A stretch of 64,000 nucleotides of DNA from a virus (IMGVR_UViG_3300011774_000001:128001-192000), one strand, 5' to 3'; shown: positions 32,114 to 58,958, numbered from the stretch's first letter. The notes: a model not told the origin generated them from the sequence alone. Numbers and translations: made by a program.

Positions 32114-32207
32114 GATTTAAACCTGCAATGTCCGTTAGGTATTTATTAGCTAATACATGTTGATGAATGCCTCATCTACCCCAAAGTGTTACACAAGGAG
32201 CAACACT

Positions 32208-33248
32208 GTGACTGCAAAAGTAAACATCCTCGCGTGCGGCGGCTTCGGTCAAAACATTATGTTGCTGCTGGCCAAGCGTGCTTCGTTCAAAGATCTGGCA
32301 CCGGCGCTGAGCCTGCATGCCTTTGACACCTCGAAGTCGAACCTCAAACGTTTCGTCGGTACCGAAATCGAATCCAGCGTCACCAAGCACCTGGTCGAAG
32401 GCGTCGACGGTTCCGGTAAGCTGCGTGCTGAAAACCACGAAGCCATCACCCAACTGGCCATCGACACCGTCAACAGCGGCAAGATCGAAGAAGGTCTGTG
32501 CATCATCGTTTCCTCGGCCTCCGGTGGTTCGGGTTCGAAGTTCGCTGACGACCTGCACGAACAGCTGGCCAAACGTGGTCGCCGTGTGATCTCCATGATC
32601 CTGGGCACCGACGAAGACGCCGAGGCGCTGGGCAACACCCTGAAGACCATCAAGACCTACCGCCACAAGGCCAGCCTGGGCGACAAGAACTTCGTCATGT
32701 TCTACGGCCAGAACCGTTTCCCGGTCGAAGGCGAAGACGGCAAGACCTACATCGACGAGGCACTGGCCGACGAGCTGTTCGTGACCAACCTGGAAGACAT
32801 CCTGATGATCGGCCACCCAGAGAACAACACTCTGGACACGGCAGACCAACTGCGCTTCCTGAACTACCGTAACGGCAGCGAAGACAAGGGCCAACTGCGC
32901 TTCCTGTCCCTGGTCAGCCGCACTGCCGAGCAGGACTTCCCAACCGACGAAGACGTACCGGTATCGGCGCTGTCCCTGCTGGCCAAACCTGGCATCACCC
33001 CGCAGTTCCCAATGGGCACCGGCTACTCCACTCGTGGCGTACTGGGCAGCTCGCTGGGCTTTGCTGAAGGCGTGGTGGAAGTACAGTTCCAACTCTTCTC
33101 CGGTCGCACTGGCAAACTGGCCAACCAACTGGACAAGCAGCAGAAGCTGTACGACACCATCCAGGCCAAGCAAGCGCAGAACAGTTCGGGCGATGATTTC
33201 AAGCGCTCCGACAAGGACAAGGTCTCCGAGTCCAACGCGTTCCTGTAA
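32208..33248 (+). CDS. phuZ: phage tubulin PhuZ
   Basis: ACGGFGQNI, DTSKSN, GVDGSGKLR, SSASGGSGS tubulin signature, LDTAD T7 loop; AAGGAG SD with GTG 32208. Confidence 0.95.
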   Translation: MTAKVNILACGGFGQNIMLLLAKRASFKDLAPALSLHAFDTSKSNLKRFVGTEIESSVTKHLVEGVDGSGKLRAENHEAITQLAIDTVNSGKIEEGLCIIVSSASGGSGSKFADDLHEQLAKRGRRVISMILGTDEDAEALGNTLKTIKTYRHKASLGDKNFVMFYGQNRFPVEGEDGKTYIDEALADELFVTNLEDILMIGHPENNTLDTADQLRFLNYRNGSEDKGQLRFLSLVSRTAEQDFPTDEDVPVSALSLLAKPGITPQFPMGTGYSTRGVLGSSLGFAEGVVEVQFQLFSGRTGKLANQLDKQQKLYDTIQAKQAQNSSGDDFKRSDKDKVSESNAFL

Positions 33249-34200: not shown

Positions 34201-34647
34201 ATGGATCTGTTTCAAGGTAGCAAGATGATCGCTGCTCAGGCGATGACCCTCGGCGAGTACAACAAGTACCGTGGCTGGACCATCCCTGAGAACGAAGACC
34301 CGGCCCGTGAAGGTTACCTGGTCGAGTACATCGGCAACAATGACTCCAACCACCCAGAGCACAAGAGCTACATCTCCTGGTCGCCGAAGAAGCAGTTCGA
34401 CGATAGCCACGTCAAGGCCGGCGGTCCAGAAGCCCTGACCTATCCTCCATTCGTGCAGCGTCTGCTCGGCGAGCGTGCTGAACTGAAAAGCGATCTGGAA
34501 AAGCTGCAGGCCTTCCAGGGCACCGAACTCTGGCAGAAGCTGCCGGACAACGTGCGCTCGCTGATGACTCGTCAGGACACGCTCATGTGCAGCCTGCTCG
34601 ACATCCTCGATCAGCGCGTGGAACTGGCCCTGCCTAAGGAGGCGTGA
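34201..34647 (+). CDS. two-domain protein: YISWSPK domain plus crAss001_48-like helical domain (candidate immune-signal sponge)
   Basis: EGYLVEY...YISWSPKKQF; QRLLGERAELxxxLEKLxAF...LMxRQ...M...ILxQR. Confidence 0.7.
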   Translation: MDLFQGSKMIAAQAMTLGEYNKYRGWTIPENEDPAREGYLVEYIGNNDSNHPEHKSYISWSPKKQFDDSHVKAGGPEALTYPPFVQRLLGERAELKSDLEKLQAFQGTELWQKLPDNVRSLMTRQDTLMCSLLDILDQRVELALPKEA

Positions 34648-35060
34648 TGCGTCACATCCTCCTGTTGGGCTGCTTCTCTGTTCTGGAAATGGCGCGTGGT
34701 GAATACGACAAGCGTCGTGGTCAAGACACTGGCCCAGATGCCGACGTGGAAGGCTACCAGCTGACCAATGTGGCCACCGGTCAAGTTCACTGGCAACGTA
34801 AAGAAGAAGTCGATCGTTCCAGCACTGCGCTGCCCGATAACTTTGCTGACTATCGTCCAGAAGATCGTCCGTGGATCGCCGAACGTGCTTTGCATGCTCA
34901 GCGTATCGTGGAGCTGGAATCCGAGTTGGCCCGCCGTAAACTGCACTACCAGCAGAACGGTACAACCGACACGTTTGCCCAGAACTTCATCGAACCCCAC
35001 ATCGAAGCGCTCAAGCAACGCGTGGCCGAATTGACCGATGCGATTCGCTGCATTGACTGA
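34644..35060 (+). CDS. divergent tandem paralogue of previous gene
   Basis: MARGEYDKRRG...EGY...HWQRKEEVD versus MTLGEYNKYRG...EGY...SWSPKKQFD. Confidence 0.65.
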   Translation: MMRHILLLGCFSVLEMARGEYDKRRGQDTGPDADVEGYQLTNVATGQVHWQRKEEVDRSSTALPDNFADYRPEDRPWIAERALHAQRIVELESELARRKLHYQQNGTTDTFAQNFIEPHIEALKQRVAELTDAIRCID

Positions 35061-35410: not shown

Positions 35411-35549
35411 AGTTCTACGGCTTCATCCAATTTATTGGTGAAACTCACGTCGTGTTGCTCCTTAACGACCTGAGCCTCCTGGACGAGCGACCTGCACTCT
35501 TTGGGGGAGTGCTGCGACGAGCTTGTCAACTGAAGTCCTGTGTGCGGAA

Positions 35550-35592
35550 GGCATGAGTCTCCTCCCTCGGAAGGGGAGGAGACCTTATGCTG
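35550..35592. terminator. hairpin terminator with TTATGC tail
   Basis: GGCATGA-GTCTCCTCCC-TCGGAAG-GGGAGGAGAC-CTTATGC. Confidence 0.8.
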
Positions 35593-35720
35593 CTAGATGG
35601 CTCTGGAAGGGCCCTAGAAAACGAATTATAACAGAATGGTACCACGCTATGGTTTAGGCCTATAAAGCCTCTCTAGCGCAATTCTGGAAGCCTACGCTCA
35701 ATGCGATACGAGTCGTTTTG

Positions 35721-35741
35721 AAACCTAAATTATCAAATTGA
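35721..35741 (+). promoter_or_regulatory. phage promoter motif, copy 6
   Basis: AAACCTAAATTATCAAATTGA upstream of the small-gene array. Confidence 0.75.
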
Positions 35742-35762
35742 TAGTGGCCCTGGACGTTTGCT

Positions 35763-36101
35763 ATGAGATTTTCCCCAATCCCAGATGACCACGTCACAGT
35801 TCTGTTCAATGTTACCGAGATCGATGAGGAGTTAAACCAGATTGGCCAATCGGTCAGTATGGATGACTACCTTGCTTGGATCTTCATTGAACTAGGGTTC
35901 CCCGTCATTACCCCACCCTGGATGGCAGAACCTCACTTACCTTTTATAGCTCGCCAAGTGCGCCAACACCAGTTGTCGGATATCCGGCTGCTGTTAGGCA
36001 AGGTTTTACACAAGGCAGGTTGGAATGGTCAGGAGCTGTTGGTGTGCGTTCAAGGTCGTGCTTATTGCTCGATCAGTTTTTTCAAGGAGCGTGCTGGATG
36101 A
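35763..36101 (+). CDS. array protein 1 (hypothetical)
   Basis: VTVLFNVTEI ... ELLVCVQGRAYCSISF. Confidence 0.7.
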   Translation: MRFSPIPDDHVTVLFNVTEIDEELNQIGQSVSMDDYLAWIFIELGFPVITPPWMAEPHLPFIARQVRQHQLSDIRLLLGKVLHKAGWNGQELLVCVQGRAYCSISFFKERAG

Positions 36102-36676
36102 ACTTTATATTTGACCTCGGCGAACAACTGGCTGAGTTACCTGCGAATATCCCGCAGGGAGACTTCAATCAGACGCTGGGTCTACATATGTTGGAACGGC
36201 GGCATTGGATGAGCTTTCTTGTGGAGGACGCTCGCGAGTGTCTGAAAGAGAAAGTCTTCGGCGGTATGAATGACCGTGCCAAGCGCATGGCCAAGCTGCT
36301 GCGTCAACTCGCTTCAGATTGTGGCGAGGAAGACCTGGCTAAGTTCTTCAAGCTGGCGATTGAAGCGTCAGAAGAAGAGCCTGTGATCGCAGAGCGTAAC
36401 GGTGATGGGGTGGTGACCTCCGAACCATTGAGTGCGCCTGCTCAGTACATGGAAGACCTGGACGACCTGCTCGATGACGTATTCTACGAAATCGGTGCGG
36501 AGATTCAGGAGTTCGTCAACGGTTTCTACGTCAAGGGTGATCTGTGGTCGGTGGATGCAACGCCGAACTCGAATCACATGGTCTTTACTTTCTGCTGCCG
36601 TCGCTCTGCTGTTGAAGCTGCCGTGCTAGCGTCCGGTGGCAAAATGCGAGATTTCGTGCAGCACCTAATCGGATAG
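36098..36676 (+). CDS. array protein 2 (hypothetical)
   Basis: AAGGAG SD; MNFIFDLGEQ ... WSVDATPNSNHMVFTF. Confidence 0.75.
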   Translation: MNFIFDLGEQLAELPANIPQGDFNQTLGLHMLERRHWMSFLVEDARECLKEKVFGGMNDRAKRMAKLLRQLASDCGEEDLAKFFKLAIEASEEEPVIAERNGDGVVTSEPLSAPAQYMEDLDDLLDDVFYEIGAEIQEFVNGFYVKGDLWSVDATPNSNHMVFTFCCRRSAVEAAVLASGGKMRDFVQHLIG

Positions 36677-36684
36677 GTGTCACC

Positions 36685-37167
36685 ATGCTGTACACACCCG
36701 GACCAATAGAGCCGCCTCCTAGCTTTAAGTTGGTCATCAATCTGGAGGAGATTCTAGGTGGGTTTCATTACGACCTGGAAGATCCGCGGTTCGCTGCCAT
36801 CGCGTCTCAGTTTGAAGGCGATACGGTTGGCTACATTGCCCGTGGGTTGATTCACAACCTGATGGGTATTCCAGGCGGCATGACCATTGACGATGCTTCC
36901 CGGTTCTTTCCTTACGAACTGGTAGGCATTGCCAAGGTATTCATCGAACGCTTTTGGATGGCATTGTCTGGTGACGTTGCCAAAATGGAAGCCATGATTC
37001 GCCACACCAACCCAGGTAAATCGTTCGAGGCCAACCGAGTACCGGCCCCAATGGTTGAAGGCTATTACAGCTTGACCATCTGGTACTACTGGAAAACCCC
37101 AGAGATGGTGGCTGCCGAGAATTACATGGAGCTGACCGAAGAGGAGCCAGAGCTACTCGGCTTCTAG
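36685..37167 (+). CDS. array protein 3 (hypothetical)
   Basis: KLVINLEEI ... YSLTIWY. Confidence 0.75.
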   Translation: MLYTPGPIEPPPSFKLVINLEEILGGFHYDLEDPRFAAIASQFEGDTVGYIARGLIHNLMGIPGGMTIDDASRFFPYELVGIAKVFIERFWMALSGDVAKMEAMIRHTNPGKSFEANRVPAPMVEGYYSLTIWYYWKTPEMVAAENYMELTEEEPELLGF

Positions 37168-37175
37168 GAGACGCA

Positions 37176-37598
37176 ATGCAGAGAGAGGTGCGTTGGGATC
37201 TGGGTGAGATGCTGGGAGAAGCGGACTTTGCCTTAAAGGGTCGTCCGCTCTCAACCAATCAAGCCTTGAGAGATCTCGTTGCTGACATGGCTTCCCTGGC
37301 CTTGCGCGACATCAGTACCGGTACCAATAACTTCCTGGACGAGTTCCTCGAAAGCAACGTGGGTTCTGAGCATCATTACCTAGCGTTGTTCTTCCGTAGC
37401 CGTGCAGCACAGTGGTATCAGGAGATCACCTCGTTTATCAACAAAGCCAGCCATGAGTTTGATTGGTTTTCGATAGACGACATTACTCAAATCACCCCAA
37501 CACTTCTGAGGATCAAACTGAATGTTGGGTACTACCATGAGAATCCAGACGCATGTATGGACATTACCGAATTTCCATCGACCTCAATGAGTCGATAG
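37176..37598 (+). CDS. array protein 4 (hypothetical)
   Basis: AGGAG SD; EVRWDLGEM ... ITQITPTLLRIKL. Confidence 0.75.
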   Translation: MQREVRWDLGEMLGEADFALKGRPLSTNQALRDLVADMASLALRDISTGTNNFLDEFLESNVGSEHHYLALFFRSRAAQWYQEITSFINKASHEFDWFSIDDITQITPTLLRIKLNVGYYHENPDACMDITEFPSTSMSR

Positions 37599-38146
37599 CA
37601 GAGATCCGGCAGATTCTGTCGGCTGTCTCTGGCGAAACGTACAACGATGAAATGACCACCCGCGCCTGTGCACACTACAAGCAATTAGCGCTTGTGTGTG
37701 CCTGTGCATTTATGATGTCGCCTGTTTCGCTGAACCTAAAGGATCGGCAAAAGCGACTCCAAGTGCGCAGCAGCATGAGTGAGAACATTCAGTCGGTGTA
37801 CCCCATGTTTGTAGGTGAGCAGCCCGCATGGGACTATCAGGAAACGGTTACGGTGGTCACTGAGCTGGCGATCAGCTTTGTGCAAACCATGATCTTCTTC
37901 AAACCAGAACTGCTGTCAATCATCGGCCTGTCTCATCTGTACGTGTTCACCCCATTGAACATCGGCACGGACAATGCCCCGACCACCGATAAGTTTGATG
38001 GCATGAGGCCACTTGAACGTTATCGGGAACTGAGGAGACTGGATAATCTAGGAGCGGGTACAGATGTTGTTATCCGCGAACCAGATAACCAACTGAGCTT
38101 CACTCTCTGGGTGAGGCCGCCTCCCACAGCAAGGTTACTAACGTGA
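37553..38146 (+). CDS. array protein 5 (hypothetical)
   Basis: RISIDLNES ... VVIREPDNQLSFTL. Confidence 0.7.
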   Translation: MYGHYRISIDLNESIAEIRQILSAVSGETYNDEMTTRACAHYKQLALVCACAFMMSPVSLNLKDRQKRLQVRSSMSENIQSVYPMFVGEQPAWDYQETVTVVTELAISFVQTMIFFKPELLSIIGLSHLYVFTPLNIGTDNAPTTDKFDGMRPLERYRELRRLDNLGAGTDVVIREPDNQLSFTLWVRPPPTARLLT

Positions 38147-38583
38147 TGGGTGTAGAATTCTACGAACAACAACGTCGCTTCTTTAGGGAACAATGGGGAC
38201 AGGATAAAGTGATCCTAAGACTCTCACGAGAGGACAGCTGCTTTGATCTGGGCATGGAGGTTGGTAATCTGGATGCCTACTGCCAGACGATCATTGAAGC
38301 AGTCATCGAGGCCATCGCCATGGAACGTCGTAATGCACACTACGAGTATCCGGGCACCGCGGCGTTGCAATACCTAGTGGGGTACGAATGGTTGGTCGCC
38401 AAATTCTCTTGGATCGTGGGTAACAAGTTCGATCACGAGAGAATCATACCTGACCTTGTGCTGGTGTATAGCTACATTGCGGACTATATCGACTCGACCT
38501 TTGAAGATTGGAACCGCGAGTGTCCAACCTGTATCCGGTTCACCTTAACCCCAGGCTTCTTTGAATTTGAGATAGGTGAATGA
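38143..38583 (+). CDS. array protein 6 (hypothetical)
   Basis: KVILRL ... IRFTLTPGFFEFEI. Confidence 0.7.
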   Translation: MMGVEFYEQQRRFFREQWGQDKVILRLSREDSCFDLGMEVGNLDAYCQTIIEAVIEAIAMERRNAHYEYPGTAALQYLVGYEWLVAKFSWIVGNKFDHERIIPDLVLVYSYIADYIDSTFEDWNRECPTCIRFTLTPGFFEFEIGE

Positions 38584-38999
38584 AGAAACTTCTGATCATC
38601 GATCTCATGGAGGAGATCAACGAATACGCTGGCGATGTCCCGGAGGAATCTTGGGACTACGACAGTATGTTGTCTGAGTATGGAACACCCGATGAGCTGG
38701 CGATGAGTGCAGCTACCGGGTTCTTCGGCTATCTGGGTTCGGATGATCCTAACCATGATGAGGAAGAAGAATTTGACGAGATGGACAAGTCGATTGGGTA
38801 TGGCTGCGTCATAGAGCCCCCAGACCAGTTTTGGTTCGACGTGCACCATAATCTGAATAACTTCAAGGATACCCTAGTGGCACAGGGCCTAGTCCACATG
38901 AGCGATTTAAGCTTTAGTGGCGGACGGTTGATCATTGAGGTGTCCAACGAAATGGATATGGCGAAGCATCATGACAGAGTCCAACCCCCCAGAAGCTGA
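38580..38999 (+). CDS. array protein 7 (hypothetical, highly acidic)
   Basis: LLIIDLMEEI ... LSFSGGRLIIEV. Confidence 0.75.
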   Translation: MKKLLIIDLMEEINEYAGDVPEESWDYDSMLSEYGTPDELAMSAATGFFGYLGSDDPNHDEEEEFDEMDKSIGYGCVIEPPDQFWFDVHHNLNNFKDTLVAQGLVHMSDLSFSGGRLIIEVSNEMDMAKHHDRVQPPRS

Positions 39000-39435
39000 T
39001 GAGCAATCGGCAAGAGATCCAAACAAGGCTGCTTGGCAGCATGATTGTCCGATTGAGTACGAGATTGATCAGACTGCGGCAGTGGTAATTGTCGAGTCTG
39101 AGGTGTTGGGGGTTATCTACGATCTCCTGCGCCGTAAGCGCATTCGTCTGGGTGTTCCAGAGGATGCGCCCGAGCATGTGTGGTTGTGCAAGGTGTCTTT
39201 CGCCATTGGCAGAGTCCTTAACGACTATCACATGGAAGACTTCCGGGACACCAACTGCCTGGCTATTGGTTCTCTGCTCATGAATGAGCTGATGGATGAC
39301 ATTCGTGAGAGCATGACTTGGATTGCCAACGTGTACTGGGAAGACGTAATTGGCTTCTCCGTGATCAGCGGCACCACCAAAGTCATGCTGCACTTTTCTG
39401 AAGAGGATTTGAACCATGGCGGTATCGCTCCGTAG
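38971..39435 (+). CDS. array protein 8 (hypothetical)
   Basis: VVIVESEV ... FSVISGTTKVMLHF. Confidence 0.7.
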   Translation: MTESNPPEADEQSARDPNKAAWQHDCPIEYEIDQTAAVVIVESEVLGVIYDLLRRKRIRLGVPEDAPEHVWLCKVSFAIGRVLNDYHMEDFRDTNCLAIGSLLMNELMDDIRESMTWIANVYWEDVIGFSVISGTTKVMLHFSEEDLNHGGIAP

Positions 39436-39829
39436 TCTTACAGTCAATACCAAAATCAACTTCACCATTGCCATGCAGGTCGGCGACCGCTCCGTGTATA
39501 ACTCGTTCACCTATCTGGGTGAGTCGGGTTACGCATTGGCAGCGTCCGTCAGCGGTGACCTGCGTGCTCTGGTGGCCAGCACCAAAGCCTATTTCCGGCC
39601 AGGCTCGCTCAAGGATGAAACCAAGATCACGTACATCGTGGTCAAGGAATCCGAGAGCAGCAAGCCGGTTGTTATTCCTGAACCACTGTTGGATCTCGAT
39701 TCGCTGGTGGTTGCAGGCAATGAAATTCACGAGATTGTTATCCGCGATGCCATGACTGCCCAACAGATCCAACAGATCCTGGTCGGTAATGGCATCAAAG
39801 ACTTCTCGATCAATACGCGACAGGTGTAG
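39416..39829 (+). CDS. conserved phiKZ-like beta-rich (SH3-like) protein
   Basis: GAGGA SD; INF..., D..K.TYIVVK, P...D.DS pattern recalled from jumbo phage core genes. Confidence 0.6.
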   Translation: MAVSLRSLTVNTKINFTIAMQVGDRSVYNSFTYLGESGYALAASVSGDLRALVASTKAYFRPGSLKDETKITYIVVKESESSKPVVIPEPLLDLDSLVVAGNEIHEIVIRDAMTAQQIQQILVGNGIKDFSINTRQV

Positions 39830-39831
39830 CC

Positions 39832-40188
39832 ATGACTGCCCCTGTCAGGATTGATGGACCTGTGAAGATAAGTCCTGACTGTCGGGTTGATCTCAATGAG
39901 CACCTCAAAGAGATCGACTACCACAAGCGGGGCTTTGACATTGGTTTTAAGGTAGCCGCCATTGAACTGGACACCGATGTGTTCAGTGTGGAGGAAACCA
40001 CAGAACACGTGATCTCCAGCGTGGGTAGTTTCAACTCGTCGTTCAGCTTTGAAGCAGACGATGATGAGATACCAACCATCCGCCATGTTGACTTTGCGTT
40101 AGGGCCTGGTAATGATCTTTTCCTTTTGGCATGCGATGCCAGGGTTAAGTCCATTACCCTGTCCTACGTGGACATCACTCCCCTCTAA
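39832..40188 (+). CDS. hypothetical protein
   Basis: AGGT SD; ORF in operon. Confidence 0.65.
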   Translation: MTAPVRIDGPVKISPDCRVDLNEHLKEIDYHKRGFDIGFKVAAIELDTDVFSVEETTEHVISSVGSFNSSFSFEADDDEIPTIRHVDFALGPGNDLFLLACDARVKSITLSYVDITPL

Positions 40189-40216
40189 TTTTTTTTTGTC
40201 TCAAAACAGGTGCCCC

Positions 40217-40843
40217 ATGACCCGTGAAGTCAGATTGAATCCCCGCCTCCATTCCATCATGATGGAGTCGTTGGAAAACGAAGACGCCAGCGGCCAGGCG
40301 ACGCAGGAAGTCGAACATGTTTTCTACGGCAAGATCTCCGATGCCAACCAGCTCGCAGAACTCGCCAAGCAGCCGTTCGTGACCAAAGTCCTGCAAGAAC
40401 AGTCGCAAGGCAAACTGGTTACCGGCACCGATGCCAGTCAGGCCGTTACGCTGCGTGTGCGCCGTCTGAACCGTAAAGACTGCGTGATGACCCGCAAGCA
40501 GTTCGTGGAAGGCCAAGCCGGCATGGCTGAAGTCACCCGCGAAATCAATGAAGGTCTGTACGACTTCATGGCCGAGTGCTTCGGTCAAGGCATGGCCAAG
40601 ATGCGTTACATCATCGCACCTGAAGGCCAGAAGAAGTTGGAATTCGACGTGTTCCTCGACGCCCATGGTAATACCTTGGGTTATGCGAAGTTCGACTTCG
40701 AAGTCACCAGCCCAGACGACGTGGTTCCGGCTCTGCCAATCACCCTGACCGAGCTGAAACACCTCAACCCGTACAACTGCACCGACGTGGATCGTGCTGC
40801 ACTGCGCGAGTTCATGAACCAGATGACCTTCAAAACCGTCTGA
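40217..40843 (+). CDS. CYTH-like (triphosphate tunnel) protein
   Basis: EVEHVF, TLRVRR, VMTRK, KMRY, LEFDVF, KFDFEV. Confidence 0.65.
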   Translation: MTREVRLNPRLHSIMMESLENEDASGQATQEVEHVFYGKISDANQLAELAKQPFVTKVLQEQSQGKLVTGTDASQAVTLRVRRLNRKDCVMTRKQFVEGQAGMAEVTREINEGLYDFMAECFGQGMAKMRYIIAPEGQKKLEFDVFLDAHGNTLGYAKFDFEVTSPDDVVPALPITLTELKHLNPYNCTDVDRAALREFMNQMTFKTV

Positions 40844-40935
40844 CATAATGGCCAGCCCAATGGGCTGGCTGTTGTGCCGTCGATTAGAAAGAGCCGGGGA
40901 CATTAAGTAGTCTCGCACACATAAGACAATTCCCC

Positions 40936-41361
40936 ATGGACACATCACTCGTAGCAGTTGTACCGCTGGCCGAAGTGGTTGATGATTTCTTAGCCTTTTT
41001 ACGCCTAGAGTGCAATCTAGGCGATCTGGCTGGAGCATTGCCAGTAGGCTATATGGTCCAAGAACTTGAACACATCGCCAAGGGCGCTGTGAACAGAAGT
41101 CACGTCAACATGCATGAGCACATGGCTCGTACTCGTGACATCTTTAAATCGTTTAGCAAAGAAGCGGCAGAGCAAGCCGATGATCTGGCAGACGAACTTT
41201 ACATTCTTCTTCGTGCCGAGTTGCCCCAACAACTAGGCAAGGACAAATCGATCTACACCGTGCGTAAAGATGGCAATGCCCTTTACATCAATCTGCTGGC
41301 ATCCAAGGATGCGTGGGCGTACGGAATAGATCCACAGTCGATTATCGATCAGGTACTTTAA
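40936..41361 (+). CDS. array-like protein 9 (hypothetical), coupled to DNA polymerase
   Basis: VAVVPLAEV ... YTVRKDGNALYINL. Confidence 0.7.
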   Translation: MDTSLVAVVPLAEVVDDFLAFLRLECNLGDLAGALPVGYMVQELEHIAKGAVNRSHVNMHEHMARTRDIFKSFSKEAAEQADDLADELYILLRAELPQQLGKDKSIYTVRKDGNALYINLLASKDAWAYGIDPQSIIDQVL

Positions 41362-43748
41362 TGGATCACTTCCTGCTGTCTTCCGAGCAGTACCAGCGGG
41401 ACCTTAACGTGGTCCGCACCTACATGAACGACAACGCCTGGTACCTTACCAAGATGCGTGGCCGTGACTTTGAATACAACGTCGAGTGGATTCGCAAGAC
41501 GATCGGTAAGGACGGGAAGTTCCCCATCAAGAACCCGTTAGTGACCATTGTTGATAAGGACAAGAATGGTGACCGTTTCATTCGTAAGGTAGGTTATCTC
41601 AACTACCTCAAGAACATCGTAGCCAAAGACCTCATCTGCGCCCCCTCCATGACCACCTACGTGCGTCCTGAGGTGCGACAGTCGCTGATGGGGGTCTACA
41701 TCAACGGTAACTTGGCATTGCGCTCTGGGGCTAAGCACGAGTCCCTGGAAGCCAAACTCTCTGCCGACAGCTACGGTGGTGAGATCTTCAAGTTGATTGG
41801 TGACCGTGAGGCGGAGGGCTGGACCATGCCTCCGTTGACGCCTGAGCTGGAAGCCAAGTTGGCTGACCTGGAACAGAAGTATGGTTACTACTACGACGTC
41901 TCTGAAATTAAGAACAACGAGCAGACCTCGCACAAGATCTTCAACAACGGGATCTCGGGCATGCAGACCATCGGGTCTACTCCGTTCGTTCTGGTGTCTG
42001 CTCACTCCAGCTTGACCTCGGGCTGCCGTTCTGCCGTGTCCTACGGTAACGCCACCATCGAGCGTTTTGTTTCAGGTAGCCGTCACTACTGGTCGCCTGA
42101 GGTGGTGATCACACAGATCCTGTCTATCTGCCGCGGTACCGACTACGAGAAGTTCGGTGCAGTGATGGAGAAGTACAAGCTCTACGTGCCGACCTTCGAC
42201 GACATCATTGACGCGATCCGTTATTCGACTGAACTGTATTGGACCCACGAAGACTCCATGGAAGAAGTCGGTGAGTTGGTTCAGACGCTGACACCAATGG
42301 AGCGTGCTGCGTTCCTGTACACCGGTGACATGTTCCACCTGCGTAAACACAACGAAGAGTTCATGCGGGAGTTCTTGAACGAGTTGTCTGCGGCTAAGAA
42401 AGGTACGCATCCTGATCCAATCCCGGTCATCAAATCGATGGACGGTGACCACAAGGCATTGGCCCTGATCCTCTGTGCAGAAGTGACTGCCGGTAAGAAG
42501 GTCAAGGATCTCATCGCCTCGGGTGATCAGCATGCTCTCTCGATGCTTGCACTGACCTATGAAAACATCATGGGTACACTCGACAAGTACGTGGACCTGA
42601 TCCAAACCTTCTGGACCACACTGAACGTTCCGCCAAACATCAGCCGTACTCGTGACATCCGTCGCCGTTCGGTTGTAGGTTCCGACACTGACTCCTGCCT
42701 GTTCACAGTGCGTGAGTGGGTCAAGTGGAAGAATGGTGCGGCGAAGTTCGACCAACCTTGCCAGGCAACATGGCACACGGTTGTGTTCATGGCGTGTCAA
42801 ACCGTGACCCACTCGCTGGCTTGCTTGTCTGCCGGTATGGGTGTGCGTGGTGAGGACGTCAAGAAGTTGGCTATGAAGAACGAGTACGCCTTCTCGGCAT
42901 TCGGTCTGACCAACATTGCCAAGCACTACATCGCCTCCATGATCGCTCAAGAAGGTGGTGTGTACTCCAAGGCCAAAGGTGAAATCAAGGGCGTGCAGTT
43001 TAAGGACTCCAACTCGCCTCCTGAAATCATTGAAGAGTCAAACGGTTACATCAGTTCTGTAATGGATTCGTTGTACCGTACCGGCGACTTTGAGATCATG
43101 CCGATCCTGAAGTCCATGGCCAAGACCGAGGCAGATGTAACTGAGTCCATCAAGAAGGGTGACACCCGGTATCTGAAAGCTGCCTATGTGCGGCCTAAGT
43201 CTGACTACAAGAAGCCGATGTCGTCACACTACTTCCACTACGAACTGTGGCAGAAGGCATTCGCTCACAAGTACGGCCCTGCTCCGGCATTGCCTTACCG
43301 TGCGGTGAAGATCTCGGTGGGACTCAAGAACAAGACCGCCATCAAGCGGTGGGTAGAGGGAATCGAAGACCCAATCATGCGTGCAGCTCTGGAAGAGATC
43401 TACGTGTATGGTGAAGGTGGTGGTGCCAGTGAAGAAGATGATCTGGCTCCAGGTGAGGTTCGCGATATCAAGGAAGAAGAAGGCGATGTAAGTGAAGACG
43501 ATGCCCCAGAGAAGGAGAAAGAAAAGGATGACGGCACTGGACCTAAAAAGCCTAAGGCCTCCATCAGTTCCTTCCTCATGCCGCTGGACATCGTATCGAT
43601 CAACGGAATCCCAGAAGAGATCCTGCGAGTGGCTAACCTGCGCCGTCAGTCCTACACGACGGTCAGTCCATTCTACTTGACAGCTGAAACGCTGGGCCTG
43701 CCAATGATCAATGCGAACCTCACGAACCTCTTGTCAGATACGCTGTAA
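41361..43748 (+). CDS. family B DNA polymerase, catalytic subunit (phiKZ gp50-like)
   Basis: KIFNNGISG (motif B), SDTDS (motif C), MKNEY, KHY, EIKGV; position upstream of chimallin. Confidence 0.88.
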   Translation: MDHFLLSSEQYQRDLNVVRTYMNDNAWYLTKMRGRDFEYNVEWIRKTIGKDGKFPIKNPLVTIVDKDKNGDRFIRKVGYLNYLKNIVAKDLICAPSMTTYVRPEVRQSLMGVYINGNLALRSGAKHESLEAKLSADSYGGEIFKLIGDREAEGWTMPPLTPELEAKLADLEQKYGYYYDVSEIKNNEQTSHKIFNNGISGMQTIGSTPFVLVSAHSSLTSGCRSAVSYGNATIERFVSGSRHYWSPEVVITQILSICRGTDYEKFGAVMEKYKLYVPTFDDIIDAIRYSTELYWTHEDSMEEVGELVQTLTPMERAAFLYTGDMFHLRKHNEEFMREFLNELSAAKKGTHPDPIPVIKSMDGDHKALALILCAEVTAGKKVKDLIASGDQHALSMLALTYENIMGTLDKYVDLIQTFWTTLNVPPNISRTRDIRRRSVVGSDTDSCLFTVREWVKWKNGAAKFDQPCQATWHTVVFMACQTVTHSLACLSAGMGVRGEDVKKLAMKNEYAFSAFGLTNIAKHYIASMIAQEGGVYSKAKGEIKGVQFKDSNSPPEIIEESNGYISSVMDSLYRTGDFEIMPILKSMAKTEADVTESIKKGDTRYLKAAYVRPKSDYKKPMSSHYFHYELWQKAFAHKYGPAPALPYRAVKISVGLKNKTAIKRWVEGIEDPIMRAALEEIYVYGEGGGASEEDDLAPGEVRDIKEEEGDVSEDDAPEKEKEKDDGTGPKKPKASISSFLMPLDIVSINGIPEEILRVANLRRQSYTTVSPFYLTAETLGLPMINANLTNLLSDTL

Positions 43749-45620: not shown

Positions 45621-45641
45621 AAACCTAGACTATCAATGTGA
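45621..45641 (+). promoter_or_regulatory. phage promoter motif, copy 8 (chimallin promoter)
   Basis: AAACCTAGACTATCAATGTGA. Confidence 0.8.
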
Positions 45642-45697: not shown

Positions 45698-47728
45698 ATG
45701 CCCGTTGAAAAACGCGGCGACGCTTCATCCGGGAACATCATGGCGGAGGCTTTCAAGAAGGCCACTGCTACGAATCCCGAACCGTCGCCAAAACAGGATG
45801 AGACACCTGCAGCGTCTTCCGCTGCGGATATCCGCCCTGATCCGGTTGTGGCTAAAAAGCCTCAGCCTGCTCCACGACAACCGCAAGCCCAGCAACGCGA
45901 AGCTGTTGTCGAACAATCCAATCACGTGAATAAGGACAGCGTTACCATGACTCAAACTGACTTCTCCCAAGGCCGTCGCGGCGCGGACAACAAGACCTTC
46001 ACCCTGAACGACATGGGTTCGAAGCGTCTGCGTCCTCTCAGCCGTTCCGCCGGCTCGGTGCGCGCCAAAGAACTGGCGACTGCAATCGAGAAAGAGCTGA
46101 AAGCTGGCCTGAACCAGGATGGCGTGTCGACCTGGGCTGTCCAGATCCTCGACGCTTCCCAGCTGAACCTGCCGACTTCCGCGGTCGTGCTGCTGCAAAC
46201 CGTCGTTGCCGAAAACACCGACCACATCGCCATGTACTCCTTCATGATCGATGGCCCGGACATTCGTCTGTCGCCACGTGTCGACAAGGTCGATGGCCGT
46301 CCGTACGAAACTCCGGTTGTGATCGGCGACATCTACAACAGCCAGGACTACATCACCCGCGCTGAAGAGCTGGTGAAACAGGCCCGCCCGAACAAGACCA
46401 TCAATCTGGTCGACGCCGGTGCATCGGTCTTCCCGGCCACCTACAGCATCGAGCAACACGGCGGTGTGTGGGACCTGCTGTACAAAGCAACCATGGCCCT
46501 GTTCAACACCATGAACAACCAGGTTGACCTGGCTACCGAACCTGCCTACACCCTGGCCGGTCGTTCCGCTGCAACCGAGCAACTGGTTGGTCGTCTGAAC
46601 TTCTCCGGCGAGAAGTACATCGACGAAGTTGGCCACCCTCAACGTCACGATGTCGTGATCGAGATGGATTCCGTGCGTCACCAGGCAGGTCGCGACTTCT
46701 CCGGCAACTCCAGCAACGTGACCAAGGTCGCGGGCTTCATGGAGCCGGTTTACGCTCAGCCTGATCCACAGAACCCAGCCAACAACCAGCCGTTCCTCAA
46801 CCAGTTCGTGATCACCCAGCTGGCTTCCGGTTACGACGCGATCGAAACCGAAATGACCATCCTGGCGCTGGTTACTGCGACCATGGTTCAAGTGCGCAAT
46901 GGTTGGGCTGACGCCTACCTGCCACGCTACGCCAACCAGGGCAAAGAGCTGAACTACCGCGACGTCGGCGCGCTGGGCTTCTGCATGCAGGACGCCAAGC
47001 GTATCGATACCAAGGCTGCCAGCTTCAAGGAAAACTTCGGCCAGTTCATGCGCGACTACTTCCGCCTGAACCAAGGCGTGATCTTCTCCATGGACATCCC
47101 TGAAGTCGGTCCTGATGCGTTCATCACTGACATCTTCCGCGCTGCGGCCGGTGGCAATGGCAACGCAATCGCAGCTCTGACCCAGGCCTGCGACAACCTG
47201 ACCGGCGGTGTGTACAGCCAGAAGGTTGCTCAGTATGGCGGCGGTTTCCCAATGTTCATCGACACTGGCAACCGTATCCACAACGGCTTCTACGTGAACG
47301 AAGCTGGTGAGCTGCGCGACATCCGTGACATCGACATGCTGGCTGTTGCCAACGTGCTCGGCAAGACCAACCCGCAAGCGCTGGTCGACTACGCTGACTC
47401 CTACGTTGCATCCACCGGTCAGGCGGCTGTGCGTATGTCCAAGCGTCTGGCGATCATCGACGACGTGCTGCAAGGTCGTCAGGTCATCACTGGCTACAGC
47501 GGTCGTTACATCATCGGCCCAAAATGGCTGCAGATCATCTCCGAAGCTTGCCAAGCGTGCAACCTGGTCGTTAACCCGGCCAACATGGTTCACGGTCTGG
47601 GCTCCGGCGCAGTTCTGGGTGGTTACGACTACGCTGCGTTCGCTGCTGGCGGCGCTGGCGGTGGCGTGTTCAACGGCGGTGGCAACAGCAACCCACAATC
47701 GGCTTACGCCGGTCGCGGTCGCTGGTAA
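45698..47728 (+). CDS. chmA: chimallin, major phage nucleus shell protein
   Basis: About 680 aa, strongest codon bias in the window, disordered termini; motifs GHPQRHD, RDVGALG, RIHNGFY, LRDIRDIDML; lies between DNA polymerase and nvRNAP beta-prime as in phiKZ (gp50-gp54-gp55). Confidence 0.88.
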   Translation: MPVEKRGDASSGNIMAEAFKKATATNPEPSPKQDETPAASSAADIRPDPVVAKKPQPAPRQPQAQQREAVVEQSNHVNKDSVTMTQTDFSQGRRGADNKTFTLNDMGSKRLRPLSRSAGSVRAKELATAIEKELKAGLNQDGVSTWAVQILDASQLNLPTSAVVLLQTVVAENTDHIAMYSFMIDGPDIRLSPRVDKVDGRPYETPVVIGDIYNSQDYITRAEELVKQARPNKTINLVDAGASVFPATYSIEQHGGVWDLLYKATMALFNTMNNQVDLATEPAYTLAGRSAATEQLVGRLNFSGEKYIDEVGHPQRHDVVIEMDSVRHQAGRDFSGNSSNVTKVAGFMEPVYAQPDPQNPANNQPFLNQFVITQLASGYDAIETEMTILALVTATMVQVRNGWADAYLPRYANQGKELNYRDVGALGFCMQDAKRIDTKAASFKENFGQFMRDYFRLNQGVIFSMDIPEVGPDAFITDIFRAAAGGNGNAIAALTQACDNLTGGVYSQKVAQYGGGFPMFIDTGNRIHNGFYVNEAGELRDIRDIDMLAVANVLGKTNPQALVDYADSYVASTGQAAVRMSKRLAIIDDVLQGRQVITGYSGRYIIGPKWLQIISEACQACNLVVNPANMVHGLGSGAVLGGYDYAAFAAGGAGGGVFNGGGNSNPQSAYAGRGRW

Positions 47729-50750: not shown

Positions 50751-51392
50751 ATGGCACAGGTCATTTACGGCGGAGAGAACGTCATCAACGAGCTGGTGTA
50801 TGGTGCTCGTTCTGACGCTCTGATTCAGGAGCTGAAGAACCACATCAGCATCCAGAATCCAATGCTCAACGAGCAGGGCCGGATGTACGCTCAGCAATCT
50901 GCCCAGATCTTCGAAGAGGTGTCTGGCTGGGATGCTGTGCGTGCTGCGCGTAAAGCAGCATCTGCGGTCGATGGTTATGTTCAGAGCAATCAGCTCGTTG
51001 TGATCAACACGGTAGAAGGGTTGCAGGTCGCACCTCCACGCACTCAGCGTTGGATCATGTGCGAACCCAATACTCGACAGTTCTATCAAGAAGGTCGCAT
51101 CGACGGTTACTCGGACAGCTACGTGGATATCCAACCTGCGGCTATCGGTGCCAATCATTACGATTGGACGCTGGCAACCAATGGTCTGGTGCGTGGTTAT
51201 GAGTACGTCAATGAGGAAGGCGAGGATCAAGTTCGGTATGAGCATACTCAGATCCAGCGAGAACTCGCGTCCTGGGACGAACCGCTCAGGCCACGCAACG
51301 TGGTGGACATCGCCCGCATCCATCAGGTGCAACGTCTGAACCTTGTAGAAGGTGGGGACGACTTTACCAGCCGGTACGGTGGGAAGATCTGA
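50751..51392 (+). CDS. conserved core protein (phiKZ gp59 / Imp3-like by synteny)
   Basis: LQVA...QRWIMCEP.TR, DGYSDSY, IG..HYD, DDFTS. Confidence 0.65.
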   Translation: MAQVIYGGENVINELVYGARSDALIQELKNHISIQNPMLNEQGRMYAQQSAQIFEEVSGWDAVRAARKAASAVDGYVQSNQLVVINTVEGLQVAPPRTQRWIMCEPNTRQFYQEGRIDGYSDSYVDIQPAAIGANHYDWTLATNGLVRGYEYVNEEGEDQVRYEHTQIQRELASWDEPLRPRNVVDIARIHQVQRLNLVEGGDDFTSRYGGKI

Positions 51393-54914: not shown

Positions 54915-55655
54915 ATGTCCGGCGGCAACGCAGCCCGTACTTCCCTCCCCACCGCGCTGATCGAATTCCGTCTGCGTCTTACTGCCGACAAGTTGCCAGA
55001 AGGGCGTAAGAACCCTAACCTGGAAATCAACGTCGACAAAAAGAACGGCGTATCCATCAGCTGCAATACCGGCATCTTCGGCGCCGACAATGCTCAGATC
55101 CGTATCAACGGCACCATGGGTGCTTTCGAGTTCGGCCTGATCAACATGTACGCCGAGCAGATCTTCTCCAAAGAAGCCGGCTTCAAGTTCCCACTGGTTC
55201 GTCTGTACGGCCCGCGTAAGAAACGCACACCACAAGACGCCGGTAAAGGTCTGGACTGCGTTGTACTGGTCGGCAAAGACGCCAACGGTACCTGCTTCAT
55301 CTCGGTCATGCGCAAAGACGCGCCGCAGGTCAAGTTCGTGTTCGCTCCTGGCCGTTGGGCAGAGCTGGCCGATGCTTCGACCAACCAGCCGCTCAACATC
55401 ACTGAAATGTCCAACTGGTACTCCCAGGCCTGGGCACGCACCATGGCTCCGCTGGTCGAGTACGCTCTCAACCTGAAGGTCTACGACTTCCGCGAAGAGA
55501 ACGACAACAACGGTGGTGGCAACAACCAGCAGGGCAACGGTCAGAACAACTGGCAGCAGCGCAACAACCAACAGGGTAGCCAGCAACAAGCTGCCGCTCC
55601 TGCAGCTGCAGCCAACAATGACTTCGGCGGTTTCGACGACGACATCCCGCTGTAA
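54915..55655 (+). CDS. chmC: nucleic-acid-binding protein, ChmC / phiKZ gp67-like, with N/Q-rich tail
   Basis: Immediately upstream of the gp68-like subunit; beta-rich domain plus low-complexity N/Q/G tail; strong codon bias; assignment by synteny. Confidence 0.65.
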   Translation: MSGGNAARTSLPTALIEFRLRLTADKLPEGRKNPNLEINVDKKNGVSISCNTGIFGADNAQIRINGTMGAFEFGLINMYAEQIFSKEAGFKFPLVRLYGPRKKRTPQDAGKGLDCVVLVGKDANGTCFISVMRKDAPQVKFVFAPGRWAELADASTNQPLNITEMSNWYSQAWARTMAPLVEYALNLKVYDFREENDNNGGGNNQQGNGQNNWQQRNNQQGSQQQAAAPAAAANNDFGGFDDDIPL

Positions 55656-55738: not shown

Positions 55739-55759
55739 AAACCTAAATTATCAACCTGA
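55739..55759 (+). promoter_or_regulatory. phage promoter motif, copy 9
   Basis: AAACCTAAATTATCAACCTGA. Confidence 0.8.
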
Positions 55760-57327: not shown

Positions 57328-57353
57328 GCAATCTCTTTTAAGGAACAAGTGCT

Positions 57354-58958
57354 ATGAACAAAGGCGTAAAGATTCTCTCCATTCTGCTGGCTGAAGCCCC
57401 ACCTTCTCCGCAGTTGTTCGTGCGTCCTTGGGAAGTGCGTTGGGAAGATGGCTATACTGACCAGCTGCTGGAAGCTACCAACGATGGTAGCAACCTGTCC
57501 GCCAGCGCAATCCGTCAGGTCGCCACAGAAATGCTGGTACCGGCAGCTGCCCATGCTGGTGCTGTAAACATCGCTAACGGTTTCGGCTTTACCCGCGGCA
57601 CTGTGACCATGGTTGTCGAGACCGAAGACGTAGGTGGTCGTAAGACCCAGGAGATCATCTCCGGCTACACCGACCATCTGGGCATCGGCGGTACGGACAC
57701 CAACCCGATCTTCAACCCAGAGATGCGGTTGTTCTTCAACCACATGGGTACGCTGACCATGACCCCTGGTAGCGGTCACGATGGCTACGGGATGTATCAG
57801 TTCGGCAACGCTACTGAGATCCTCACCCCGATGACCGGCTGGGATAGTCAGAACGAGATCCCAATCGTCAACCGTCAAGCAGCCACCATGCGTCCAAAAG
57901 ACGTAATGGCTAGCCTGGGTGAAGGTGCATTCGCTGGCATGGGCATGCATGACCCAGCGGGTCAGTCGAAGGTCAACGGCGCTCCAGTGCTCGGCAACAC
58001 CAGTTATCAGTTCGGTAGCCGTGCCAAGCGTTCGAGCTTCGACAACAACGTGGCCACCGAGTTCGTGTCTCGCGTCTTCACCGGTGTACGTGACACCATG
58101 CTGGACAACTCTACTGATCATCGCCAGTACGGCAATGCTCTGCAGAAGGCCAGCGAGTCCAAGTACATCAACGAGCCGATGACCTCGAACTCTGCAATGA
58201 TGCTGCTGCTTCAACGCCGCAGTCAGTTCCAGCAAGAGTGGTCCGTCACTCTGCAAGAGCTGATCAACATCGACCACACCATCCCAAGCCGTATCCAACC
58301 GATCAAGCTGACCGTGCAACAACGTCAGACCTTCGGCGCGATCATGAGCAACACCGATGGTTGGAATGAAACCAGCTTTGAAGGTCAAGTGGCTCAGCTG
58401 GCTTCGCTGATCATGCCCAACGCAATGGCCAAGTTTGCTCTGGGTCATCTGCACTTCACTGCACACACTGAAACCCTCGACGGTTCGGTGGACGTACGCA
58501 TCATGAACTTGGCGGGTATCGCTCAGGGCATCGATCCACGTACGGTGGTGAACATGATCAAGCAGCACCTTGCGTTCGAGGTGTTCCCTGCACTGACCAT
58601 GGGTCGCTTCAAGATCCACATCGAGGCCAACATTTCGTTGAACCGGATCTCGTCGATCACCGTGGGTGTTAACGGTGGAATGAAGAAACCGTTCCCGATC
58701 GCAAGCTACTGCTCGGCGCTGTACAGCCCGTGCTTGGCTCCAAACGTTGGGGTGCTGGAAAAGGTTGCTACTGACCTTAGTGGTGTGGCGGCAACGCTTA
58801 CTGCAGCGGCAATGAAAAGTGGTCCAGGCATTATCCTGCCTAGCCATGAACCTGCGCCGATGATGGACTATGGTAGCGGTGGTATTTCCGCCACTCCACT
58901 GTCCCAAGTCAACTTCACCAATCCAGGCAATGTGCCTGGCGGTGGTCTCGGATTCTGA
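57354..58958 (+). CDS. picA: nuclear import factor PicA/Imp1 (phiKZ gp69-like)
   Basis: Follows the gp68-like gene; I.NG, GYTD, P.MRLFFN and MRP.DV motifs; similar size. Confidence 0.7.
   Translation: MNKGVKILSILLAEAPPSPQLFVRPWEVRWEDGYTDQLLEATNDGSNLSASAIRQVATEMLVPAAAHAGAVNIANGFGFTRGTVTMVVETEDVGGRKTQEIISGYTDHLGIGGTDTNPIFNPEMRLFFNHMGTLTMTPGSGHDGYGMYQFGNATEILTPMTGWDSQNEIPIVNRQAATMRPKDVMASLGEGAFAGMGMHDPAGQSKVNGAPVLGNTSYQFGSRAKRSSFDNNVATEFVSRVFTGVRDTMLDNSTDHRQYGNALQKASESKYINEPMTSNSAMMLLLQRRSQFQQEWSVTLQELINIDHTIPSRIQPIKLTVQQRQTFGAIMSNTDGWNETSFEGQVAQLASLIMPNAMAKFALGHLHFTAHTETLDGSVDVRIMNLAGIAQGIDPRTVVNMIKQHLAFEVFPALTMGRFKIHIEANISLNRISSITVGVNGGMKKPFPIASYCSALYSPCLAPNVGVLEKVATDLSGVAATLTAAAMKSGPGIILPSHEPAPMMDYGSGGISATPLSQVNFTNPGNVPGGGLGF

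Follow-up and report, generated by a model that had tools for sequence, protein, structure and literature searches.

A conserved, probably early operon between the PhuZ and DNA polymerase genes of a divergent chimallivirus, and a possible ancient family of Imp2-like binding proteins

How does the nucleus of a nucleus-forming phage choose its cargo? The known cargo-specific factors are only Imp2, Imp4 and Imp5, all reported to be restricted to Pseudomonas phiKZ-like phages, and the question is raised again by an array of small genes in a stretch of 64,000 nucleotides (the window) that corresponds to bases 128001–192000 of a 231-kb IMG/VR virus record (IMGVR_UViG_3300011774_000001). Here, 12 tightly packed + strand open reading frames (ORFs; o1–o12) lie between a GC-rich hairpin and the gene of a family B DNA polymerase (Table 1). 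According to the preferred reading, to which about even weight is given, this is a probably early operon in which eight or nine of the 12 products are ancient paralogues of the Imp2 fold class, serving as specific binding modules with the role of cargo adaptor as the leading candidate. The parts of this reading differ in strength: a conserved, probably early operon, most of whose members are built alike and carry an N-terminal element that is not random, and which belongs to the structural neighbourhood of the Imp2 interval, is supported; that all nine descend from one ancestor and are related to Imp2 and Imp4 is likely, not proven; and an adaptor function is a reasonable hypothesis for the candidate role of the array proteins.

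A sequence-only reading had placed here eight translationally coupled, mostly acidic small ORFs, with a ninth coupled to the polymerase. The small, coupled and acidic character of the products stands (isoelectric points of 4.2–5.8 across the array), but the count does not, as the locus holds 12 genes, of which o9–o11 had been skipped; with this correction the observation as a whole is confirmed, and all of the peptide strings quoted in its favour are found where they had been placed. The junctions from o1 through the polymerase gene measure -4, +8, +8, -46, -4, -4, -29, -20, +2, +28, +92 and -1 nt, so that the 92-nt spacer between o11 and o12 is the one exception to a packing of -46 to +28 nt, while the o12 stop codon and the polymerase ATG share 1 nt (TAATG).

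The putative family would comprise o1–o5, o7, o8, o12 and perhaps o6, as ancient and extremely diverged tandem duplicates of a single chimallivirus-specific α/β fold, with an N-terminal strand, a helix capped by [DN]-x-x-E, a helical bundle of variable length and a C-terminal β-hairpin that would pair with the first strand. The [DN]-x-x-E pattern is the classical helix capping box. A regular expression for the strand and cap, h-x-h-[DN]-[LMV]-x-E, is matched within the first 40 residues by 5 of 226 crude gene calls, all of them in the array, and also by o1, which is absent from those calls; the expectation for the 12 array proteins is about 0.1, giving an enrichment of about 50-fold. To avoid judging a pattern that had been defined after the fact, a leave-one-family-out design was used, in which 18-column hidden Markov models (HMMs) were made from all other motif-bearing families and scored on the six-frame ORFs of the genome. 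Among approximately 1465 non-training ORFs, the left-out family ranked 1st for o5, 3rd for o3, 4th for o2 and 7th for o4, then 45th for o1, 66th for o7 and 196th for the window's deviant o12. No convincing copy was found outside the array when the full motif HMM was run across the genome. The motif is conserved in the array orthologues, including those of o12 (IINLEE, ILNLEE, VIDVEE), which fit it where the window's own VVPLAE deviates, and it falls in register in about 16 of the 66 best hhalign alignments between array families. The earlier assignment of this element to all nine proteins is therefore upheld beyond chance for o1–o5, o7 and the o12 family but not for o6 (VILRLSRE) and o8 (VIVESE), which depart from it.

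Structure prediction with AlphaFold2 was carried out for two array members, namely o4 and o8, the latter being selected as a doubtful member with a deviant motif, and the 50 top viral neighbours of each model in BFVD were collected with Foldseek. The o4 model, made from a six-sequence alignment, has a predicted local distance difference test score (pLDDT) of 82.5 and a predicted template modelling score of 0.74, and contains the strands (E) and helices (H) E2-8, H10-19, H29-48, H52-62, H64-91, E97-107 and E110-118. That of o8 (16-sequence alignment) is of moderate confidence, with a pLDDT of 61.7 and a core at about 70–77, and shows a disordered acidic N-terminus followed by E37-42, helices, E126-131 and E137-142. 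The element order is thus alike in the two, and the architecture proposed from sequence (strand, helix cap, helical middle and C-terminal hairpin) is borne out in both models; the C-terminal hairpin patterns are also conserved in orthologues, as are both the motif and the hairpin of o1. In the o4 model the capping box falls exactly at the turn from strand 1 to helix 1, and the motif is therefore taken as structural and not as a sorting signal. On the same fit, its interpretation as a prohead-protease cleavage site or N-terminal sorting signal was rejected, and published work indicating that import uses no terminal signals is a further ground against the sorting-signal interpretation. As a separate observation, o5 starts 46 nt inside o4 (37553–37598), and the overlapped o4 tail (residues 126–140) has a pLDDT below 50.

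The two neighbour lists have 18 targets in common, and the named matches in each of the lists are nearly all small uncharacterised proteins of chimalliviruses. Both of the Imp2 homologues, PhiPA3 gp044 and 201phi2-1 gp79, are present in the o4 list as well as in the o8 list, with PhiPA3 gp044 at rank 12 for o4 (a weak match with a probability of 0.82, a template modelling (TM) score of 0.40 and an E value of 0.035) and at rank 31 for o8. The 201phi2-1 matches B3FK54, B3FK55 and B3FK49 correspond by protein length to gp79, gp80 and gp74, all of which are encoded in the PhuZ-to-polymerase interval of that phage; gp79 is annotated as "similar to phiKZ gp47", and the gp80 gene is situated directly upstream of the gp49 homologue. 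Likewise, the top match of o8, a 100-aa protein of Ea35-70 that corresponds by length to Ea357_215, is encoded directly upstream of a gp49 homologue. Some of the matches carry consecutive UniProt accessions, which suggests that neighbouring genes are involved in other phages too, the position in the interval having been checked for 201phi2-1 alone. Taken at face value, these models predict that the same fold class would occur at this position in cultured phages, with Imp2 of the phiKZ type among its members. No match to the o4 model was found in the PDB, i.e. no similar solved structure, and a search of the ESM Atlas with o7 yielded no usable match; the Atlas rows for o2 were set aside, the Atlas's own model of that protein being too poor (pLDDT 0.40). 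By eye, phiKZ gp43 (357 aa; L006:16342-17415) appears as two tandem strand-helices-hairpin units, and it shares with Xoo-sp14 gp202 (L007:10731-11153) a hairpin stretch of the form W-x-W-x-V...DYRI-x-E-[YW].

What is known of this interval comes from phiKZ, in which gp47 and gp48 are both encoded between PhuZ (gp39) and the polymerase (gp50). The identification of orf47 as imp2 and orf48 as imp4, which the sequence-only reading had given, agrees with the literature. Imp2 is needed for the import of Nlp1, is itself imported through Imp1, and has a homologue in PhiPA3 orf44 (10.1101/2024.03.27.586873), while Imp4 is needed for the import of the host TopA; the two have been called cargo-specific adaptors (10.64898/2026.09.21.753271) and are reported to be conserved only in the Pseudomonas phiKZ-like phages. 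The array resembles Imp2 in several respects, i.e. in its position between the phuZ and DNA polymerase genes, in the small size of its products, in a strand-then-helix start (FVVINISD... in Imp2) and, by eye, a C-terminal hairpin, as well as in the presence of the PhiPA3 gp044 and 201phi2-1 gp79 models among the nearest viral models of o4 and o8. It differs from Imp2 in that no match to phiKZ gp47 or PhiPA3 gp044 was found by HMM or hhalign, in that the structural scores are weak, and in that Imp2 is a protein of 178 aa with a 30-residue N-terminal extension (276 aa in 201phi2-1). A targeted literature search returned no paper that places the interval genes in a wider family, whether paralogous or structural.

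Several results weigh against the derivation of these proteins from one ancestor. An all-versus-all BLASTP of the 12 array proteins gave no pair below an E value of 0.6; the best probability obtained by hhalign among the 12 families was 31% (o3 with o12, over 83 columns and collinear from the motif); a profile of the o8 family made from 27–80 sequences matched no other array member; and neither family HMMs nor hhalign linked the array to phiKZ gp43–gp48, gp47 and gp48 included. The structural matches are weak as well (E of at least 2.6e-3, TM of 0.2–0.57 and mostly below 0.5), the fold evidence comes from two of the nine members, o8 having been modelled with moderate confidence, and convergence could repeatedly produce an element as simple as a strand with a capping box behind it. 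In a competing explanation, the array is not one family and consists of unrelated small early proteins with convergent strands, capping boxes and hairpins; besides the lack of significant sequence or profile similarity and the weak Foldseek scores, it can draw on o9, o10 and o11, which are plainly different. We regard it as decidedly unlikely, given that the motif is confined, in a genome of 231 kb, to the array and holds up under cross-validation, that the independently folded o4 and o8 agree in their order of elements and have 18 of the 50 viral models nearest to each in common, and that these shared models are almost exclusively from chimalliviruses, several of them mapped to the same interval. 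Of the paralogous family suggested by the sequence-only reading, one structural neighbourhood common to o4 and o8 is supported, and homology among all nine by profile–profile comparison is not; nor is the accompanying notion of a constant scaffold with a variable helical surface supported, the invariant residues of the o4 family being spread along the whole chain.

Pfam and PHROGs gave nothing for any of the members except o9 (SH3DP, phrog_3235) and o11 (phrog_14791), and in family HMM and iterative HMM searches of the ORFs of 69 loci only o9 and o11 reached beyond the clade; a word-indexed homologue search with o4 returned four matches, all inside the clade. When the array families were compared by hhalign with 33 families of other chimalliviruses and with phiKZ gp41–gp48, only one pair stood out, formed by the o8 profile and c6, a family present at 14 further chimallivirus loci; the two align collinearly with a probability of 62%, and this match provided the 16-sequence alignment behind the o8 model.

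An iterative HMM from o8 and c6 recruits 30 of the 54 genes that immediately precede the SH3DP gene across the fetched loci, and the o8-family profile, when run against 1.84 billion representative proteins, matches 56 clusters at E of 1e-3 or below, almost all of them full-length proteins of ~100 aa; Ea357_215 joins the family weakly. Judged from these alignments, o8 is best assigned to a wider family directly upstream of the SH3DP gene, which is the slot of phiKZ Imp4. There, o8 directly precedes o9 just as gp48 directly precedes gp49, the two proteins are similar in architecture, gp48 aligns end to end with the o8-family profile and matches its ESEV, PDxP and D-T-x-G hairpin, and 201phi2-1 gp80, which occupies the Imp4 slot, is a structural neighbour of o8. 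On the other hand, the alignment of gp48 to the o8 profile is without statistical support (an E of 0.27 with 54 positional candidates searched, and less than 1% probability by hhalign), and the search of the 1.84 billion proteins did not reach gp48 or 201phi2-1 gp80. A profile of Imp4 could not be built because the homologue searches with gp48 gave only relatives of at least 85% identity (at least 95% by BLAST). It has to be noted that phiKZ gp48 (L006:19543-19926) and 201phi2-1 gp80 (L073:12622-13008) have no BLAST link to one another and yet share slot, length and, by eye, a near-identical C-terminal hairpin, VL[IS][TI]VP[ML]D..G..G[VA]VV, and divergence at this locus is therefore extreme. 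A far-reaching version of the proposal would make the array an ancestral, family-wide adaptor locus, with Imp2 and Imp4 belonging to one ancient and diversifying fold family of all chimalliviruses instead of being peculiar to Pseudomonas phages, a different cargo of PicA/Imp1 licensed by each paralogue, and the o8 family as the true orthologue of Imp4; we consider this version unlikely.

The preferred reading, in its more restrained form, holds that each paralogue would be a small and specific protein-binding module, the leading candidate role being that of a cargo-specific adaptor which, like Imp2 and Imp4, would present one protein to PicA/Imp1 on the nuclear shell; the genome encodes the PicA/Imp1 importer together with homologues of Imp3, Imp6/ChmC and chimallin. 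All 12 ORFs have syntenic orthologues in the same order in the related viral contigs L001, L002 and L004 and in the metagenome contig L009, those of o1 being 79%, 51% and 44% identical in L001, L002 and L004, respectively. The ratios of nonsynonymous to synonymous substitution rates (dN/dS) against L001 and L002 are 0.02–0.30 where computable (dS is saturated for o3 against L001 and for o6 against L002, and o12 was left out), and the ORFs are therefore real genes under purifying selection. They have evolved fast, with a dN against L001 that is 2–6 times the polymerase value in every case except o6 (0.009, compared with 0.035 for the polymerase); where the polymerase is 69% and PhuZ 55% identical, o1–o8 and o12 are only 32–44% identical. 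Two genes deviate from their surroundings. One is o6, which is 98% identical to its L001 counterpart amid neighbours at 71–87% and only 50% identical to that of L002, a pattern that suggests mosaic exchange or unusually strong constraint. The other is the polymerase-coupled o12, which is 22% identical to L001:9559-9990 beside a polymerase at 94%. Against each of the remaining alleles, too, that of L001 reaches 20–27% identity, and the pattern resembles an allele replacement.

It is at this point that the main rival enters, namely that the same paralogue family has another job, its members being early host-takeover, anti-defence or regulatory binders in the cytoplasm with no role in import. Small, acidic and fast-evolving proteins under an early promoter would suit such a task, allele replacement of the kind seen for o12 is typical of genes in conflict, and just two genes of the phiKZ interval show an import phenotype, each for a single cargo. 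However, the genes of the array and their order have been preserved one-to-one among phages whose polymerases share only 69% identity, the dN/dS values give no sign of gene-wide positive selection, and no disruptive transposon insertions occur in phiKZ imp2 and imp4 (PMC12676376); moreover, phages infecting many different hosts retain the equivalent interval, which is more readily reconciled with a phage-internal function than with host-specific counter-defence. Such a cytoplasmic role is accordingly held to be possible, if on the doubtful side.

The remaining genes of the array belong to other families. The o9 product scores 27.4 bits against PF20287 (SH3DP; cut-off 25), which Pfam describes as "SH3 fold domain associated with phage DNA polymerases", and also matches phrog_3235; its HMM finds phiKZ gp49 at 6.6e-7, and its family is present in 54 of the fetched loci. 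With its score above the Pfam threshold, o9 is the syntenic orthologue of gp49, but the resemblance concerns this one gene, which is outside the paralogue family. The o11 family was found in 12 loci, and o10, to judge from its sequence, is probably of a different fold. In another explanation, the array proteins are accessory factors of replication, kept beside the polymerase gene and in part translationally coupled to it because they act at the replisome, as is presumed for the adjacent SH3DP protein. The 1-nt overlap of o12 with the polymerase start, the name of the Pfam family of o9 and a linkage to the polymerase that is conserved in about 60 loci would all be in keeping with this. It is nevertheless very improbable, since o9 alone is as widely conserved as the polymerase while the others evolve much faster, a strong hairpin parts o1–o11 from o12 and the polymerase, and the sole functional data on genes of the interval concern import.

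The expression of the array can be approached through its promoter. The motif noted upstream of o1 by the sequence-only reading proved to be real: at 35720/35721 stands one of about 14 good copies of tTT[CG]AAACCTAaAttATCnnnnTGA that the 231-kb genome carries, each of them on the + strand, the fuller form being TTT[CG]AAACCTAAATTATC...TGA, also written AAACCTAAATTATC(n4)TGA. One copy, at 45621, precedes the chimallin homologue by ~360 nt, and another, at 55739, is just upstream of the gp68–PicA operon. Chimallin (ChmA) and PicA are listed as early in phages of this kind (PMC12908238), and the array promoter is called early because its motif is common to the ChmA and PicA operons. The array would thus probably form one conserved operon, read early from a phage-specific promoter at 35720, and the + strand copies would be a probable map of early promoters for an uncultured phage. 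Two stable hairpins bracket o1–o11, and these may be terminators of a phage polymerase or elements of RNA processing or stability; the upstream one is not called by a consensus terminator scan, and scans for sigma-70 promoters and intrinsic terminators gave numbers of sites not above those of shuffled sequence.

As for the wider setting, tblastn with the polymerase matched 291 chimallivirus-type phages, with Xoo-sp14 at the top (35% identity), and the cultured relatives closest by this protein are chimallivirus-type jumbo phages, all at 35% identity or below. With phiKZ proteins, tblastn located homologues of chimallin, Imp3, Imp6/ChmC and PicA/Imp1 (Table 1), and homologues of the non-virion RNA polymerase (nvRNAP) gp55 and of gp68 are also present in the window. 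The gene order PhuZ, array, SH3DP/gp49, polymerase, ChmA, nvRNAP, Imp3, Imp6, gp68 and Imp1 matches phiKZ gp39–gp69, and given these matches the window is collinear with that region; the source virus is a divergent chimallivirus, i.e. a nucleus-forming giant phage. A comparison of the array DNA with 50,697 phage records gave zero matches. Upstream of the array, a gene at 34201–34647 matches PF21825 (crAss001_48-related) and phrog_872, and the adjoining gene at 34644–35060 has a similar N-terminal GEY-x-K-x-RG stretch and is a possible diverged duplicate of it.

Table 1. Coordinates of the array and of related features in the window (aa, amino acids)
Feature	Position	Strand	Description or evidence
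PhuZ tubulin gene	32157-33248		
GC-rich hairpin	35556..35585	+	ends preceding unit; RNAfold -29.9 kcal/mol (35545-35595); no T-run
Phage promoter motif, probably early	35716..35748	+	TTTTGAAACCTAAATTATCAAATTGA; genome-wide motif copies
o1	35763-36101	+	112 aa; motif VLFNVTE, hairpin LLVCVQGRAYCSISF; candidate family member
o2	36098-36676	+	192 aa; motif FIFDLGE; candidate family member; extra C-terminal helix
o3	36685-37167	+	160 aa; motif LVINLEE; candidate family member
o4	37176-37598	+	140 aa; motif VRWDLGE; folded reference member
o5	37553-38146	+	197 aa; motif ISIDLNE; candidate family member
o6	38143-38583	+	146 aa; VILRLSRE, hairpin IRFTLTPGFFEFEI; doubtful member, on the basis of pattern only
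o7	38580-38999	+	139 aa; motif LIIDLME, hairpin LSFSGGRLIIEV; candidate family member
o8	38971-39435	+	154 aa from orthologue-conserved ATG; disordered acidic N-terminus; deviant VIVESE
o9	39416-39829	+	137 aa; SH3DP domain protein, phiKZ gp49 orthologue; outside paralogue family
o10	39832-40188	+	118 aa; beta-rich from sequence; weak RVDLNE, lost in orthologues
o11	40217-40843	+	about 208 aa; phrog_14791; different family
Strong hairpin between o11 and o12	40848..40872	+	RNAfold -25.5 kcal/mol (40838-40885); no T-run
o12	40936-41361	+	141 aa; VVPLAE; hypervariable allele
Family B DNA polymerase (phiKZ gp50 homologue)	41361-43748	+	synteny anchor; tblastn
Chimallin (ChmA) homologue	45980-47602		tblastn with phiKZ proteins
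Imp3 homologue	50886-51380		tblastn with phiKZ proteins
Imp6/ChmC homologue	about 55239-55490		tblastn with phiKZ proteins
PicA/Imp1 homologue	57348-58871		tblastn with phiKZ proteins
Promoter motif copies in window	501, 4554, 20434, 28512, 35721, 45621, 55739, 60781	+	more copies outside window

If the array does represent one old family of the Imp2 fold, every nucleus-forming phage would carry a ready list of candidate specificity factors, an "import code" would become testable by comparing the paralogues and their partners, and a phage-specific fold without a solved structure would gain a likely role. Even without a role in import, the array would clearly exemplify a tandem family that has diverged beyond recognition by sequence while its order has long been kept.

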